Below are positions 12,001-21,000 of a DNA stretch of 27,713 bases, piece after piece. Numbering within the stretch: the stretch's first letter is position 1; the number at the start of each line of letters is the position of its first letter. This DNA comes from Candidatus Krumholzibacteriia bacterium (GTDB lineage: Bacteria > Krumholzibacteriota > Krumholzibacteriia > WVZY01), in assembly GCA_036478295.1 (NCBI GenBank), contig JAZGDW010000168.1:1-27713 (forward strand), given 5' to 3'. Made by a program: the position numbers.

Positions 12001-15000
12001 GTCTCCCCGTTTCCACACGAGCCGCTGCTGCTTTACTACGCGAAATCGTACCCCGCAATCGGGTGCGCCATCGCATCCCTGGCGGGCTGCCTGGTCGCCG
12101 GCATGTGGGATTACTTTCTTTTCATCCCGCTCATTCACCACCCGCGGCTCCGGGTGAAGTATGTGAACACGGGACTCTACAAGCGTTCGGTGGATTTTTT
12201 CAGGAAATGGCCGTTCTGGGCCCTGGTGGGCGTCGGTTTCACGCCGATTCCCTTCTACCCCATAAAATTTCTTTCGATCGCCGACGGTTATCCCATGACG
12301 AAATACCTGGCCGCGCTCGTCGTGGGCCGGACGCCACGCTACTACGCGATCGCCTATCTGGGCTACGTGCTCAATCTCCCAAACTGGAGCCTCGTCGCAC
12401 TCGCGCTGGTCTTTCTCGCCGTTACCCTGTACATGAATCGCAAGAGCTGATCGACTCTCGCTGGTTGGGGTGAACGCGGCCGCTGCCGCGCAGAATCGTG
12501 GCCGCCGTTCGGTCTACTCTCGTGGTGGGCGACCGACGACACCGGTCAGTATGAGGATCCCGATGGCAACGAGTACCAGCGGCCAGCCCTTGGTCAAGAA
12601 CCAATCCGCTGGTGCGAAATCCAGGCCGACACCCTTTACCAGCAGGATGGCGCCCGGGATGAGCGGCCACCAGGGCGAACGGTCCCGTACCACCATATCG
12701 AGAATGAATATCGCGACGAAACCCAGTCCCAGGCCCAGGGCCTGGCCGTCGCTGATATTGAGGCTCGTGCGGTCGATGACCCTGCCGACGCCCAGGCCCA
12801 GCAGGACGCAGGCGGGGATGAGCAACCCGTAACGCCGTCGGTAGAGGTACCAGGCCAGAAATACGCCTCCGACGGTAAACAGCACCAGCGTGTTGTCCGC
12901 CGGTCGGCCGGAAAGCCGGACAAGAAACAACACCAGGCCCAGAACAACCAGTGTGCTACCGGCGACGTGCCGGCGGTGGCCCCGCCGCGTTCCTGCTTCG
13001 TGTTCCGACATTTGCCTCCCCTATTCTTCGTTCAGCCGCCGTGAAATCCAGATCGTACGGTAGATGGCGGTGGCGACGGTTCCCGTGGCGATGACAACGA
13101 TGATAATGCGCAGGATGAACCCTGGGTCCTTGTCCAACGCGCCGGACAGCGCCGGATCGAGAATTGCCCCGAAACCGAGCAGCAGCAGGCGCTCGGCACG
13201 CTGCATCAGACCGGCCTTGCAGGTGATTCCGAGACCCTCACCCCGCGCCCGTGTGTAACTCACCAGCAGTGAGCCCCCGAGTGCGACCAGCACGAAGAGT
13301 ACCATGGACCCCGATTGAAAGAACGCAGCCAGCCCGACGAACACGGCCAACTCGCTGAAGCGGTCGAGCGTCGAATCGAGAAACGCCCCGCTCGATGACA
13401 CGAGGTCGCGGCTGCGTGCGATCTCTCCGTCCATGACGTCGGCGAACCCGCTGAGCAGAATGCACCATCCCGCCGCCGGCAGTTGCCCGCGCGCGAAGAA
13501 CGCCATGCTCGCCACACCGCACGCGACGGCGAAAAGGTTGAAAAAGAGCGGACTCAACCGCATGCCCAGAGACACTCGCTTGACCGGTCGTATGAACCAG
13601 TAGAACCAGTTCCTCACCCAGAAGCCCAAAACGAACGAGCCGCCGCGGCCGGTGACGTCGCCCAAGCCGGTGCGACCCTCCCCGCTAAAACGATACACGG
13701 CCATCGTCAGCAGGGCGAAGCCGATCAACCCGGTGAGCAACGCCAGTTCTCCTCTCATCGCGGGTTCCCCCTGGCGTTTTGATCGTCCCGACCGTCATGG
13801 TTCCCCGGACTCGCCCGCATCGCCCGAAACACCCGAAACACCTTCGGCCACAGGAGAAAGATCGGAAGCCGCCGTTCGTTGGGGGTGAGTTCCAGGTGAA
13901 GGCCGGTTCGTCGCTCGATTTTGCGCACGATGTAGTCCAACCAGTCGTCGAAGGTCAACATGTACTTCGACCATCTTAGCGTCGCGCGTATTTTCGACCC
14001 CACAAAAAAGAGGCGCCAGCGAAGCCTGCCTCGGAGAGCTGGAGGTTCCACCATGTGATACAGCCCGTCCCCACGCTCGAGTATTCCATCACGCACCGCG
14101 TCTTGCAGAATGCGCGTGTAGCTCAATATCAGGTAATGCCGCTGTGCCTCGAACACTTCTCCCACGCGTGCTTTTGATTCCGGGCGGATCTCGCCTGCGT
14201 ACGACCGATCGAGCATGCGGCGGCAATAGTCGAGAACCGAAAAACTTCGCGGCAGGTACAGAGGCACCCAGTCGAGCGTAAGCCGTCTCGCATCGAGCAG
14301 GCGTTCCTCCAGACGCGCGCCGTCCGCCGGCGTTCGTGCGTGAACGATCTGGAACTGCTGCATCATGCGGCCCCTGCAAAAGTGATCCCTGGCGCCGTCC
14401 GAAAGAGCCACCTCCAAATCGCTGCGACTGATTACGAAGCACTTGGTGCCGGCTCGCAGGTCGCCGGGATCACGCACAGATATGATGTTCGGGGGCAAAA
14501 AACGATTGAGGGCCGCCATGATCCTGGCCCGCCGCCGGGCAGGAAGGCGCCTGCCGATATCGCTGTAGAATCTCTCGTACTCTTCGACGACGACGAAGAG
14601 ATCAGCCGCGCTGTGAGCGTCGGGAGAAGTTCCCAGCAGCCGGGACCCGAAGAGAATGACCGCTGCCAGGTTGTCGCCGCAGGCCTCCGTCAACAATCCG
14701 AGACTGACCCTGACCTCGGGCGGCAAGCTGCTGCCGCTGAGATGGCTGGCGAGTGCGGCTTCTGCGCCGAAATCACCGGCGATTACTTTTTCGTTGTGAA
14801 CCCTTTCAGAGTCCGACATGTCACTCCTGGTCTGCCACGCGGCTCGCGGGAGCCTCCCGCATCTCGTGGAGCTTATCACACATCAGGTCACGCATGCGTA
14901 CGATGAACGCCGCCACGTCCTCTTCCGGTCCGGGTGACGGAAAAGGCCCGGTGCTTTCGATCCGCGCGCGGACCGAGCTGATGTTGTGGATATAATCGAC

Positions 15001-18000: not shown

Positions 18001-21000
18001 AGGCGACGGCACGTGGAGCGCCGTGGCCGACTGCATCGTGAAGAGCGGCCGAGAGGACGTGTCCCTGGGCATGCTCCCCGCCGGCACCGGCAACGATTTT
18101 GGAAAGTCACTGGGCATCACCTTCGAACGGGCAGAAGCCGTGGTGCGCGGTATTGCCGCGGGCCGGCGGCGAACGGTTGACGTTGGCCGGGTGGAGGGTC
18201 GTCATTTCCTGAATGTCGTCGGGCTCGGATTCGACATCGCCGTCATCGACGATGCGGAGGACTTCCCCCTTCTCAAGGGTGACGCGCTGTACCAGGTGTG
18301 CGCGCTACGCCAGCTGTTCCGTTTCCGGGGTATTCCGCTCAGTGTCTCCGCGGCGGATGCCCGGCCCGATCGCCGCGATCACCTGATGCTCGTCATTGCC
18401 AACGCCAACTATTTTGGGGGGTCGTTTCACATCGCGCCCAGCGCCAGTCTCGAGGATGGCATGCTCGATGCCGTATCCATCTACGATGCAGGCCCGCTGG
18501 CCCGCGCCAGTCTCTTCAAAAAAGTCGCAAAGGGACGGCACGAGGGCGAGGAAAAGGTCAGGATCCAGCAATCGGGGGCGTTTCGCATCGAGTGCGATGG
18601 TCCGGTACGATACGAAGTGGACGGCGAGGTGTACACGTCACGCGGCAGCGTGCTCGAGGTGCAGTCGTTGCCGCGGGCGCTGACCGTTTTTATCCCGGAT
18701 TCGTAGGACACACGTCTCGGTGGCGGTTGTTGGATTGTCTCCCTGGCCGTGCTCCACTGTCAGCCTTGCGGCGGTGCGTTGTTGGATCGCCTCCCTCGCC
18801 GTGCTCCACTTCGCTCGGCTACCCGCCTACGGCGGGTGATCCTCGCTCGTTCCCGCAACGGCTCCGTCACCAACCCAACAACGCCCCACCACCTAGTCCC
18901 GCAACGGCTCCGTCACCAACCCACCAGGCGCCCCGCTGACTTGCTCCGAAACGTCTCCGTCACCAACCCAACAACACCCCACCACCTGGGCCCGCAACGG
19001 CTCTGTCAACAACCCAACAACCGCCCCCCGACTTGTTCCTGCGACGGCTCGATGCGGGTGGCAGCGAACGGGCGCCCGGCCGCGCGCAGCCTGCGAGCAC
19101 GGACGGGCTGTTCGCTGACAGGACCCGCATCGAGCCGCGCGTCGCTCACGCTCACTCGTCCGCGCCGCTGTACAGTTCCGCGACCTTTCCCGCCGACGTC
19201 ACGATCCCCTTGATCATCGCCGAGCTGAACCCCTGGTGCTCCATCTCGTTTAGACCGGAAATCGTACACCCGCGAGGTGTGGCCACCCGGTCGATCTCGT
19301 ATTCGGGGTGATTTTCCGCTTCGAGCATCAGGGACGCCGCGCCGCGCGCGGATTGTGCCGCGATCACCAGCGCCTGGTCCGCGTGGAACCCGATTTCGAT
19401 GCCCCCCTGGGAGGCCGCACGCACCGCGCGCAGGAAGAACGCCACGCCGCACGCTCCGAGAGCCGTCGCGGCCACCATCTGATCCTCGTCGATGGTCAGC
19501 GTCTTGCCCACCGCGGCGAAGATCTCGCGGGCGATGTCGATGGCCGCGCCCTCGCCACCCGCCAGGCAGGTCATCGATTCACCAATGGCCACAGCGGTAT
19601 TGGGCATCGCCCTCACCACGGCCACTTTCTTGTCGAGCCGCTCCAGGATCTGCCGGATGCTCACCCCGGACACCACCGATATGACGACATGGCGATCCGC
19701 GGTCAGGTGGCCCGAGATCCCGTCGAGCAGCGCATTCATCTGCCGTGGCTCAACCGCGATGACAATCACGTCGGAATTCCGGACCGCCTCCCCGTTGTCC
19801 GCGGACGTAACAAATCCCTGCTTTTGAAATTGCTCCAGCATTTGATCTTTTCGCCGGGTCAGGGTGATCTGTCCCGCCGAAAAGTGCCCGGACCGAACCA
19901 GGCCCGTGGCAATGGATGCGCCGATATTCCCTGCCCCGAGCACCGCAAGGCGATTTTTTCTTGCCAAAACGATCTCCTTTCGAGCACTCCACTACAAAAC
20001 GTCGAATCCGTAAGCAATGCCCACTATATCACGCCGGTCCAAGAGTTGACTTTAATCAAATTGAAGCTTCAGGCGAAATTCCCTAAATTTAGATGGGTGG
20101 CGCTGTCGCAACCCACAGAAGTTGATCTCAAGGGAGTCGTTCATTGATCGAGATCCGCACTCATGGCAGAGGCGGGCAAGGCGCCGTCGTCGCATCGAAA
20201 GTACTTGCGGTCGCGCTGTTCAAGGAAGACCGGTACGTCCAGGCGTTTCCCGCCTTTGGGGTGGAGCGACGCGGCGCGCCGGTGGTTGCGTTCACTCGTT
20301 TCGACGATAAACCGATTCGCCGCCGATGCGAGATTTATACACCGGACCATCTCATTGTTCTCGACCACGCGCTGACAGGAGCCACCGATGTTACAGAAGG
20401 GCTCAAGAGCGGCGGTTGGATTGTCATCAACACGCACACGGATCCCAGCGGTTGTTTCCGGACGGGCAACTTTCGACTCGCCGTGGTGGACGCGAACGCC
20501 ATTGCCTGGCGGCATCACCTGGGCAGCCGTGCAACGCCGATCGTCAACACGGCGATCCTCGGTGCCTTCGCCAGGGCTACGGGGCTCGTGAGCCTCGATT
20601 CCGTCATCGAAGCCGTACTGGAATCTGTTCCGACCCACCCAGAAGGCAACAGGCAAGCGGCCATCGATGCGTACAATGAGACCGAAGTTTACGACACCAT
20701 CGCGCTGTGCGACGAGGTGACGGAAGGATAATGAGCGGTAACAAGAAAACATTTGATGACGTGTCACAGGTACCACTCGGCGCGGTGTCCGCCGACGACA
20801 TGCGCTGGAACAAAACCGGCACGTGGCGCAACGTAAGGCCGTTCTTCGACCCGAAGACGTCGCCTTGCATTGCGGGCTGCCCCGCTGGCGAGAACATCCA
20901 GGAATACATCGCCCTCGCCCGCGAAGGTCGTTTTGAAAAAGCGGTCCGCGTCATATGGGAGAGCAACCCGTTTCCGGCGATTTGCGGCAGAATCTGCTAC

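Follow-up and report, generated by a model that had tools for sequence, protein, structure and literature searches.

The window, by which the whole analysed stretch of 27,713 nucleotides from Candidatus Krumholzibacteriia bacterium (contig JAZGDW010000168.1) is meant, carries a six-gene block arranged as two divergent three-gene arms with a 170-bp gap between them (Table 1). All six open reading frames were recovered at the coordinates given in the earlier note, and the genes of the transferase g00694 and the nucleotidyltransferase g00695 overlap by ATGA. A single co-directional run is the arrangement in 17 of the 20 Vicinamibacteria loci fetched and in locus L028. The six genes stand together in 13 of the 17 loci named previously, the remaining four being cut by contig ends (L029, with a match at E 1e-3 and none of the block genes, was left out of the count), and the same Krumholzibacteriota genomes are marked by the Tam41-like (26/208), ADC-fold (26/208) and acyltransferase (27/208) genes, so that the 28 of 208 genomes formerly assigned to g00695 come down to 26, or to 27 if counted by the acyltransferase. 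Beyond this phylum, 76 of 301 Vicinamibacteria genomes carry the block, as does an Eisenbacteria-type phylum, most of the groups concerned being uncultured; Gemmatimonadota are represented by named family members and not by loci. It is thereby confirmed that the block is real and travels together. Genome G201 was considered as a case of decay, with the ADC-fold gene cut and the kinase orthologue not found, and was rejected, the cut being an assembly gap of N. Two satellites accompany the block: an orthologue of the radical SAM gene, which lies beyond the coordinates of the earlier note, adjoins it in L012, L013, L015, L028 and 9 of the 20 Vicinamibacteria loci, and the VTT/DedA gene, possibly encoding a lipid flippase, in L012, L013, L015, L059 and L061. 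The promoter and terminator scan of the window gave results at chance level, and no relative was found in the viral contigs searched.

Table 1. Genes of the block and its satellites, with proposed assignments and their basis
Feature	Position	Strand	Basis
Radical SAM gene, recurrent satellite of the block	10761..11876	+	PF04055; recurs beside the block
Membrane protein with a VTT/DedA domain, a satellite found only in the window's family	11857..12450	+	PF09335 at E 1.5e-5, below cut-off
PIP/AIP-synthase-type CDP-alcohol phosphotransferase (g00694), probable inositol-phosphate transferase	13021..13758	-	PF01066; best PDB matches PIP synthases, E 4e-17; pocket residues
CpgC/Tam41-family nucleotidyltransferase (g00695), 354 aa from ATG 14819; probable CTP:sphingolipid-1-phosphate cytidylyltransferase	13755..14819	-	Tam41 fold; CpgC-profile match
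Acyltransferase of the PlsC family (HxxxxD), start codon uncertain; candidate N-acyltransferase in place of bCerS	14821..15597	-	PF01553; PDB PlsC 5KYM
Alpha-oxoamine synthase, most likely serine palmitoyltransferase (g00697), lineage-specific N-terminal extension	15768..17126	+	SPT PDB matches; GTFSKS; pocket residues
ADC-fold protein, WHLPH motif, modelled SPT-dimer partner; start GTG 17114 or 17117	17114..17776	+	ADC superfamily fold; invariant residues; complex model
YegS/DgkB-type lipid kinase, candidate sphinganine or ceramide kinase	17804..18706	+	TIGR00147; PDB DgkB and YegS

The best PDB matches of g00697 are bacterial serine palmitoyltransferases (SPT; E 2e-85), which reproduces the previous observation. 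The protein carries the PLP lysine motif GTFSKS, characteristic of SPT (PMC10196870), and equivalents of SPT His138, Asp210, His213 and Ser81; in the alignment Gly137, Ser138, His195, Ser240, Asp265, Ala267, His268 and GTFSK are invariant in all 41 rows, Met326 being variable. NCBIfam scores are tied between BioF (369 bits), Bacteroidota SPT (368) and the Kbl-like family (368), all under cut-off, and the curated SPT models, which cover Bacteroidota and proteobacterial clades, are failed at 368/640, 342/500 and 277/670 bits; Caulobacter-type and Roseomonas Spt each pass an SPT model, the former failing two of the three. Identity as BioF or Kbl finds no support in view of sub-cut-off scores (369/426 bits for the BioF model), the STLGKA that replaces GTFSKS in the Kbl-like paralogue of the same genome, and a search of the source genome that found no bioD (control found in 8 of 14 genomes), though the tied family scores would still allow it. 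By its residues g00697 is most likely a serine palmitoyltransferase. Use of another amino acid or of a short acyl donor, leading to a non-sphingoid aminolipid or a secreted metabolite, appears very unlikely. Such an outcome would accommodate the tied scores, the unusual SP in the GSR loop (Pro139 stands for Arg of other SPTs, and Tyr109 for Asn52 of S. multivorum), the aldol and secondary-metabolite chemistry known among ADC-like proteins and the P450 fused to two g00695 relatives, and amino-acid choice is not fixed by first-shell residues in this enzyme family (PMC13692747). Yet Ser138 corresponds to SPT Ser81 rather than to Ala82 of cysteate transferase, the kinase and the CpgC-family enzyme would need a C1 hydroxyl, as provided by serine and not by glycine, alanine or cysteate, and the distribution of the block complements that of spt-bCerS-cerR.

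The ADC-fold protein, whose gene is never apart from the SPT gene in uncut loci, matches structures of the ADC-like superfamily (ADC, MppR, Sbi_00515 and Swit_4259) at Z 19-22, with a fold match at Z 21.9 and rmsd 3.0 over 200 residues. The Atlas search returned ADC clusters only, the profile gave no real match among PDB sequences, and a plasmid search yielded one weak unannotated match. Glu61, Arg95, His97 and His106 of WHLPH are invariant, all 91 rows have His in the W-x-x-P-x motif, and there is no Lys in invariant or near-invariant columns; the block protein thus differs from the superfamily in having His, not Lys, at what we take to be the position of the ADC Schiff-base lysine. A complex of the SPT dimer with this protein was modelled with a score of 0.75 versus 0.01 for the best control, a level that 116 of 157 solved pairs and 2 of 215 mismatched ones attain, these counts being only a rough guide here. 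The runs share at least 83% of contacts, with a partner pLDDT of at least 88, and the interface residues of SPT are no more conserved than the rest (14/27 versus 160/363). The model places the ADC-fold protein on the SPT dimer as a partner subunit. The literature consulted describes no bacterial SPT that has a partner subunit of its own, although no search was directed at this point.

For g00695 the earlier finding of a Tam41 fold in a protein lacking a Pfam match was reproduced, all top five fold matches being Tam41 (E 1.6e-8, for 7ECD, to 7e-6), as was the Tam41 lead in 11% of members of the first Atlas cluster; the family profile matches Tam41 6IG2 at E 2e-12. G58, S59, K126 and R151 are invariant, and D73, S206 and R212 are present in at least 90% of 88 family rows. 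With mitochondrial and Firmicutes Tam41 CDP-diacylglycerol synthases (PF09139; 6IG2, 7ECD) the protein shares the fold and the motifs GS..D, K, GR and SY.G(D/E).R, but it differs in an identity of 12-13%, an extra basic C-terminal region common to CpgC, a sphingolipid gene context and the lack of a PF09139 match (the PF09139 search of the source genome at large also gave none, but carries no information as no control genome gave one). Profile A1, built from g00695 and 27 close relatives, matches Caulobacter-type CpgC (882-bp ORF, L009:192-1073) at E 4.6e-26 over model positions 11-321; pairwise phmmer gives E 7.5e-7 in a 9-sequence set, and g00695 directly matches cpgC-position genes of Roseomonas and Pseudomonas plasmids. 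In L009 the two upstream primers from the literature span 843 bp, as published, and since the two downstream primers have no match in it, it represents a close relative and not the type strain. The family tree was a quick version, midpoint-rooted and without Tam41 outgroup. On sequence grounds g00695 is a member of the Caulobacter CpgC family and probably a CTP:sphingolipid-1-phosphate cytidylyltransferase.

This assignment bears on the former statement that the route is not described for Caulobacter. The Tam41 domain of CpgC (CC_1161) has been noted and NDP-activated ceramide proposed for it (PMC11324152), and genetics places its action on ceramide-1-phosphate (PMC9393093), so the novelty claimed for the activation step fails, while CDP-activated phosphosphingolipid chemistry as such keeps the support of residues, context and co-occurrence for SPT, kinase, Tam41-type activation and PIP-synthase-type transfer. 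In Caulobacter the linked CDP-alcohol phosphotransferase (CAPT) CpgA is dispensable for the product of the CpgC step (PMC9393093), and adjacency alone is therefore no proof of a hand-over from the Tam41-like enzyme to the CAPT. The literature search, which did not extend to most subscription papers, found no paper on CDP-ceramide and none whose title or opening abstract lines describe this block. The spt-cpgC-cpgB-cpgA cluster of Caulobacter crescentus (CC_1162-1159; PMC9393093, PMC11324152, PMC12275187, PMC10331486) likewise links SPT to a lipid kinase, a CDP-alcohol transferase and a Tam41-domain protein that is truly homologous to g00695. It differs in that the kinase and CAPT of the block are not orthologues of CpgB and CpgA (CAPT against CpgA, E 0.008), that the block adds a PlsC-type acyltransferase, the ADC-fold protein and an SDR or zinc dehydrogenase, and that the head group is predicted to be inositol phosphate instead of glycerate. 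Queries with bCerS, AcpR, CpgB and LptFG found no match in the source genome (91% complete), and those with CerR, AasR and CpgD only weaker or partial ones on other contigs.

In g00694 the CDP-alcohol motif and R133, S167, Y168, R172, R187, R190 and R234 are invariant in 43 of 43 rows, whereas position 170, equivalent to K135 of PgsA1, is R in 35 and Q in 8. Compared with the inositol-phosphate pocket of PgsA1 (R94, S132, Y133, K135, R137, R152, R155 and R195; PMC6506517), seven equivalents are invariant, the match to R195 lying at the weak end of the alignment. NCBIfam scores are under cut-off for archaetidylinositol-phosphate synthase (131/180 bits), PIP synthase (109/170) and the BT_1523 model (106/350). 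The pocket thus appears intact, and g00694 is probably an inositol-phosphate transferase. The inositol phosphodihydroceramide pathway of Bacteroides thetaiotaomicron (BT_1522, BT_1523, BT_1525, BT_1526; PMC9246714) shares with the block the predicted product class, a PIP-synthase-type CAPT and INO1 in the genome, but there PIP-DAG is made from CDP-DAG and AUR1-like BT_1522 serves PI-DHC (PMC9246714), while the block, with no AUR1-like gene among its Pfam matches, has a Tam41-type enzyme and a kinase. INO1, put forward as support, is indeed present (g01017), but it says nothing specific on the block as it is found in 187 of 208 genomes. By family function PlsC, Tam41 and PIP synthase make up exactly a second glycerophospholipid route (lysophosphatidic acid to phosphatidic acid, CDP-DAG and PIP), which might merely lie beside an aminolipid arm; the divergence of the arms in the window and the annotation of Firmicutes Tam41 (7ECD) as phosphatidate cytidylyltransferase agree with that. 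We hold this improbable given the co-directional Vicinamibacteria loci, the joint gain and loss of genes of both arms and the ceramide phosphate substrate of CpgC, the nearest characterised relative. Moreover, the source genome already has CdsA, a second PIP-synthase-like gene and three other PF01553 genes, so that neither CDP-DAG nor PI requires the block.

The sole PDB match of the block acyltransferase is PlsC 5KYM (E 5e-7), and NHQS and EG are invariant in 37 of 37 rows. Its orthologues mark the cassette set of genomes, and for the 6 of 20 loci that no longer hold the gene, all five genomes checked had an orthologue elsewhere. Among 76 scanned matches five are acyltransferase-Tam41 fusions and one is a Tam41-CAPT fusion, the former suggesting that the acyltransferase makes the substrate of the Tam41-like enzyme. 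The kinase scores 149 bits with TIGR00147, above the cut-off of 118.65, and belongs to a family that also has DAG as a substrate; it gave only one match to three CpgB-position proteins (33% over 103 aa) and, judged by this comparison, is not a CpgB orthologue. No reductase lies in the window; in the 20 Vicinamibacteria loci the corresponding slot holds an SDR in 14 and a zinc dehydrogenase in 3, never both, and the top reductase-profile match of the source genome is an SDR on contig C136 (265 versus 172 bits), present in 2 of 2 cassette relatives but also in 1 of 3 non-cassette relatives. The same sphingolipid might arise by another amide step, with N-acylation preceding the kinase or falling to an unlinked enzyme or to the ADC-fold protein, which is rich in His, and with an O-acyl chain added by the PlsC-type enzyme, or with lyso CDP-sphinganine as the activated form. 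We regard this as unlikely, even if less so than the other alternatives. O-acyl transfer is what PlsC-family enzymes are known for, CpgB acts as a ceramide kinase and also uses DAG in vitro, and the ADC-fold gene is inseparable from SPT with its four residues invariant; on the other side stand the acyltransferase-Tam41 fusions, a kinase that is not CpgB-like and the lack of acyl-transfer chemistry among the ADC-fold structural matches. No PlsC-type enzyme was shown to act as a ceramide synthase in any paper that the literature search found.

In Krumholzibacteriota bCerS is present in 91 of 208 genomes, within spt-bCerS-cerR operons where inspected, so that sphingolipid capacity in the phylum is not special to the block. 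It occurs in 3 of 27 cassette genomes versus 88 of 181 others, being missing from the source genome and 23 further cassette genomes, though the Fisher p of 1.5e-4 overstates this near-exclusion as the contrast runs across kin. Three more distinctive features of the block, not given in the earlier note, are the near-exclusion of bCerS, a reductase slot with exchangeable occupants and the SPT-ADC complex as modelled. On balance the evidence leans slightly towards production of a phosphosphingolipid via a CDP-activated sphingolipid, the product most likely being an inositol phosphosphingolipid formed independently of bCerS. In the order of steps that we propose, the PLP enzyme would join serine and an acyl thioester into 3-ketosphinganine, with the ADC-fold accessory subunit holding or passing on the lipid; an SDR or zinc dehydrogenase, neither adjacent in this genome, would reduce it; the kinase would phosphorylate C1 and the PlsC-type enzyme acylate the C2 amine, this order being favoured because sphinganine-1-phosphate resembles lysophosphatidic acid. 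The CpgC/Tam41 protein would then convert ceramide-1-phosphate to CDP-ceramide, which the PIP-synthase-type enzyme would transfer to inositol-1-phosphate, and a phosphatase encoded elsewhere may finish the lipid. As a complete sequence, with its substrates, its kinase and acylation order and its product, the scheme is tentative and may well be wrong in part.

With the same reserve, the block could represent a third, independently assembled route to ceramide lipids, comprising a two-protein SPT, phosphorylation of the free base, PlsC-family N-acylation, activation to CDP-ceramide and the formation of inositol phosphoceramide phosphate in a direct step. It would take the place of spt-bCerS-cerR in parts of three or more phyla. 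If so, surveys requiring Spt, bCerS and CerR would overlook a group of sphingolipid producers, among them roughly one in four of the Vicinamibacteria genomes sampled, and the block would supply a candidate for the "alternative non-homologous proteins" suggested for Spt-like genes without linked bCerS (PMC11334938). Having a single nucleotidyltransferase, a single CAPT and naturally occurring fusions, it also offers a compact system in which to test what CpgC does.

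The block is real, conserved and of broader range than the earlier note gave. All six open reading frames lie between 13021 and 18706 as reported there, arranged in two divergent arms: a tightly coupled minus-strand arm of the PlsC-type acyltransferase, the Tam41-like protein g00695 and the CDP-alcohol transferase (CAPT), and a plus-strand arm of the PLP enzyme, the acetoacetate-decarboxylase-fold (ADC-fold) protein and the kinase. The scan of named genomes gave 18 loci, reduced to 17 by leaving out L029 (E 1e-3, no block gene), and the count of 13 with all six genes together stands, the other four being truncated at contig ends. 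Four of six additional Krumholzibacteriota regions have the complete block, and the other two are broken, one at a contig edge and one at an N gap. Across the phylum, profiles detect g00695 and the ADC-fold protein each in 26 of 208 genomes and the acyltransferase in 27, the positive genomes coinciding except for two fragmented ones. The g00695 type occurs in 76 of 301 sampled genomes of the class Vicinamibacteria, where 20 fetched loci (including L093 and L107, with split matches) all carry the serine palmitoyltransferase (SPT), ADC, kinase, Tam41-like and CAPT genes, and 14 the acyltransferase. In the phylum of genome G567, whose fusion protein is identical with P0154, labelled Candidatus Eisenbacteria at its source, the ADC gene is found in 9/151 genomes and the whole block in 6/6 fetched loci. 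Proteins of the g00695 family also carry source names from Gemmatimonadota and Bdellovibrionota. Outside Krumholzibacteriota, 15 of 193 genomes hold a member, one with the block and five with the gene adjoining a DAGK-domain kinase; the remaining carriers have neither the block nor such a kinase near it.

Features of the window lying outside the six-gene block
Feature	Position	Strand	Remark
DcuC/YfcC-type transporter	4197-5878	-	two overlapping frames, 4541-5878 and 4197-4964
Radical SAM gene	10761-11876	+	uncharacterised family, recurs beside block
Four-helix membrane protein	12514-13011	-	9 bases after CAPT
Two short intergenic repeat families	18726-19050		after kinase gene

Among the neighbours, the radical SAM family adjoins the block in the window and in loci L028, L093, L094, L097, L098, L101, L103, L104, L107 and L109, that is in two phyla, with 32-39% identity between them, and may serve in lipid modification. 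The four-helix membrane protein has no Pfam match and is kept at this place only in locus L012. The repeats measure 33 nt and 82 nt, the latter made of ~46-nt units; in the home genome they match sequence on 13 and 18 contigs. A methyltransferase-like and an ABC-permease-like gene, labels that represent a reading of the sequence and not a family match, recur upstream of the block in L028 and in several Vicinamibacteria loci and are coded on the opposite strand. The split of the transporter is probably a frameshift or an assembly error.

NCBIfam family models tie for the PLP enzyme, but solved SPTs rank first in PDB, the top ten matches of its N-terminal stretch being bacterial or eukaryotic SPT chains. 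Comparison with the motif and pocket residues described in PMC10196870 finds GTFSK and most pocket residues of S. multivorum SPT invariant over 41 aligned sequences. The enzyme departs from that pocket at Tyr109, which replaces Asn52 (a change shared with human SPTLC2), at Pro139 and at Met326, a position that varies. In this family first-shell residues leave the choice of amino acid unfixed (PMC13692747). The enzyme very probably uses serine. The statement that the block has no ketoreductase holds for the window and its family. An SDR precedes SPT in 14/20 Vicinamibacteria loci and in L028 (best NCBIfam match mycolate reductase, below cut-off), and the position after the kinase is taken by a zinc dehydrogenase in 3/20 Vicinamibacteria, 12 Krumholzibacteriota and 6/6 G567-phylum loci; the two occur together in no locus, and three of the 20 Vicinamibacteria loci have neither. 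We infer that such alternation of two unrelated oxidoreductases at one block fits the step of 3-keto reduction.

In all uncut loci the ADC-fold gene either overlaps the SPT stop codon or directly adjoins it. Its product combines the ADC fold with a conserved WHLPH motif; its profile has no sequence match in PDB, and we know of no solved SPT-ADC complex. The modelled SPT dimer (residues 41-430) with this protein scored 0.75 vs 0.01 for the best control, a mark reached by 116/157 solved and 2/215 mismatched pairs, figures that apply to the present case only approximately; contact agreement between runs was at least 83% and partner pLDDT at least 88. The predicted interface uses an N-terminal extension and a GKH loop of SPT, both absent from the Caulobacter-type, Roseomonas and four bCerS-linked SPTs (bCerS, bacterial ceramide synthase). 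ADC His39 and Glu175 and SPT Lys416 are among its predicted contacts; the conserved ADC residues His97 and His106 fall outside the interface as listed. Interface residues of the ADC-fold protein are more conserved than its rest (13/27 vs 52/193, p 0.04), and those of SPT are not more conserved than the rest of SPT. The modelling thus supports a putative binding of the ADC-fold protein to the SPT dimer.

No bCerS was found in the home genome. Across Krumholzibacteriota it is present in 91/208 genomes (80 of 91 in family f9), and spt-bCerS-cerR operons are common in the phylum, making up six of the seven bCerS loci inspected (L140-L146), the seventh being bCerS-cerR. Only three of 27 cassette genomes (G191, G193, G022) have bCerS vs 88/181 others, a contrast to be taken as a pattern and not a test, since kin genomes are not independent; in family f5 two genomes have the block only, one both and seven bCerS only. 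This rarity suggests that the block has its own amide-forming step. PMC11334938 describes Spt-like genes to which neither bCerS nor CerR is linked; its main text does not name Krumholzibacteriota. The best candidate for the amide-forming enzyme is the PlsC-type acyltransferase, because it is confined to cassette genomes, is retained after leaving the locus (of six Vicinamibacteria genomes without it there, five were searched and all five have an orthologue, 35-40% identity) and is fused to a Tam41-like domain in five matches.

By itself g00695 has no Pfam match; many of its 76 scanned relatives match PF09139, its family profile aligns its motif series with that of Tam41 structures at E 2e-12, and its predicted structure (pLDDT 89) superposes on the Tam41 fold. 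The Caulobacter-type locus found via the published CC_1161 primer contains an 882-bp ORF matched by the profile of the close relatives of g00695 (E 4.6e-26). A quick 55-row tree resolves block-type proteins and proteobacterial CpgC into two supported groups (99, 99), which join at SH-aLRT 93. By sequence g00695 is a relative of CpgC. Three of six plasmid matches were inspected: in Roseomonas and Pseudomonas the gene directly follows the kinase in Caulobacter-type spt clusters, and in Diaphorobacter it follows CAPT in a related cluster. These plasmid-borne phosphosphingolipid clusters are L003, L004 and L005; the Diaphorobacter plasmid is of conjugative IncP type and also encodes a desaturase and an acyltransferase. 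Two relatives, P0031 and P0035, have a C-terminal cytochrome P450 fused, P0035 also an N-terminal domain without Pfam match.

With Caulobacter the block shares by descent only the CpgC-type gene and SPT (~37-40% identity); it looks independently assembled, since its kinase is of YegS/DgkB type and its CAPT of PIP-synthase type. Sequence comparison with the mycobacterial PIP synthase (part of PMC6506517) finds the basic pocket for inositol phosphate retained in CAPT. The home genome encodes INO1, and also CdsA, a second PIP-synthase-like protein and other acyltransferases, so the block would be an extra that serves a special lipid. Another possible inositol user of this genome lies at C256:207-1679 (-), where a nucleotidyltransferase is fused to a CAPT as in di-myo-inositol-phosphate synthases. 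As donor for CAPT a CDP-lipid is more likely than CDP-inositol, because the single nucleotidyltransferase of the block is of the lipid-activating Tam41 type. In Bacteroides, according to part of PMC9246714, neither the route via PIP-DAG and an AUR1-like enzyme nor the also proposed CDP-inositol route involves activated ceramide.

The activation route, which the earlier note considered new, is already in print, as a proposal, for the homologue CpgC: PMC11324152 remarks on the Tam41 domain of CpgC and puts forward an NDP-activated ceramide. Caulobacter cpgC mutants retain ceramide phosphate without ceramide phosphoglycerate (CPG), and cpgA mutants retain CPG (passages of PMC9393093); passages of PMC12275187 and PMC13228409 give the mechanism of CpgC as still unidentified, and the activation idea is therefore a published hypothesis only. 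Synthesis of a phosphosphingolipid via a CDP-activated sphingolipid is the best explanation of the block, and we lean slightly towards it. More doubtful is an independently assembled third ceramide-lipid route, which would lead from SPT with the ADC-fold protein through phosphorylation of the free base, PlsC-type N-acylation and CDP-ceramide to inositol phosphoceramide phosphate. What the analysis adds is, on one side, evidence for a bCerS-independent route and, on the other, evidence for a partner protein of SPT.
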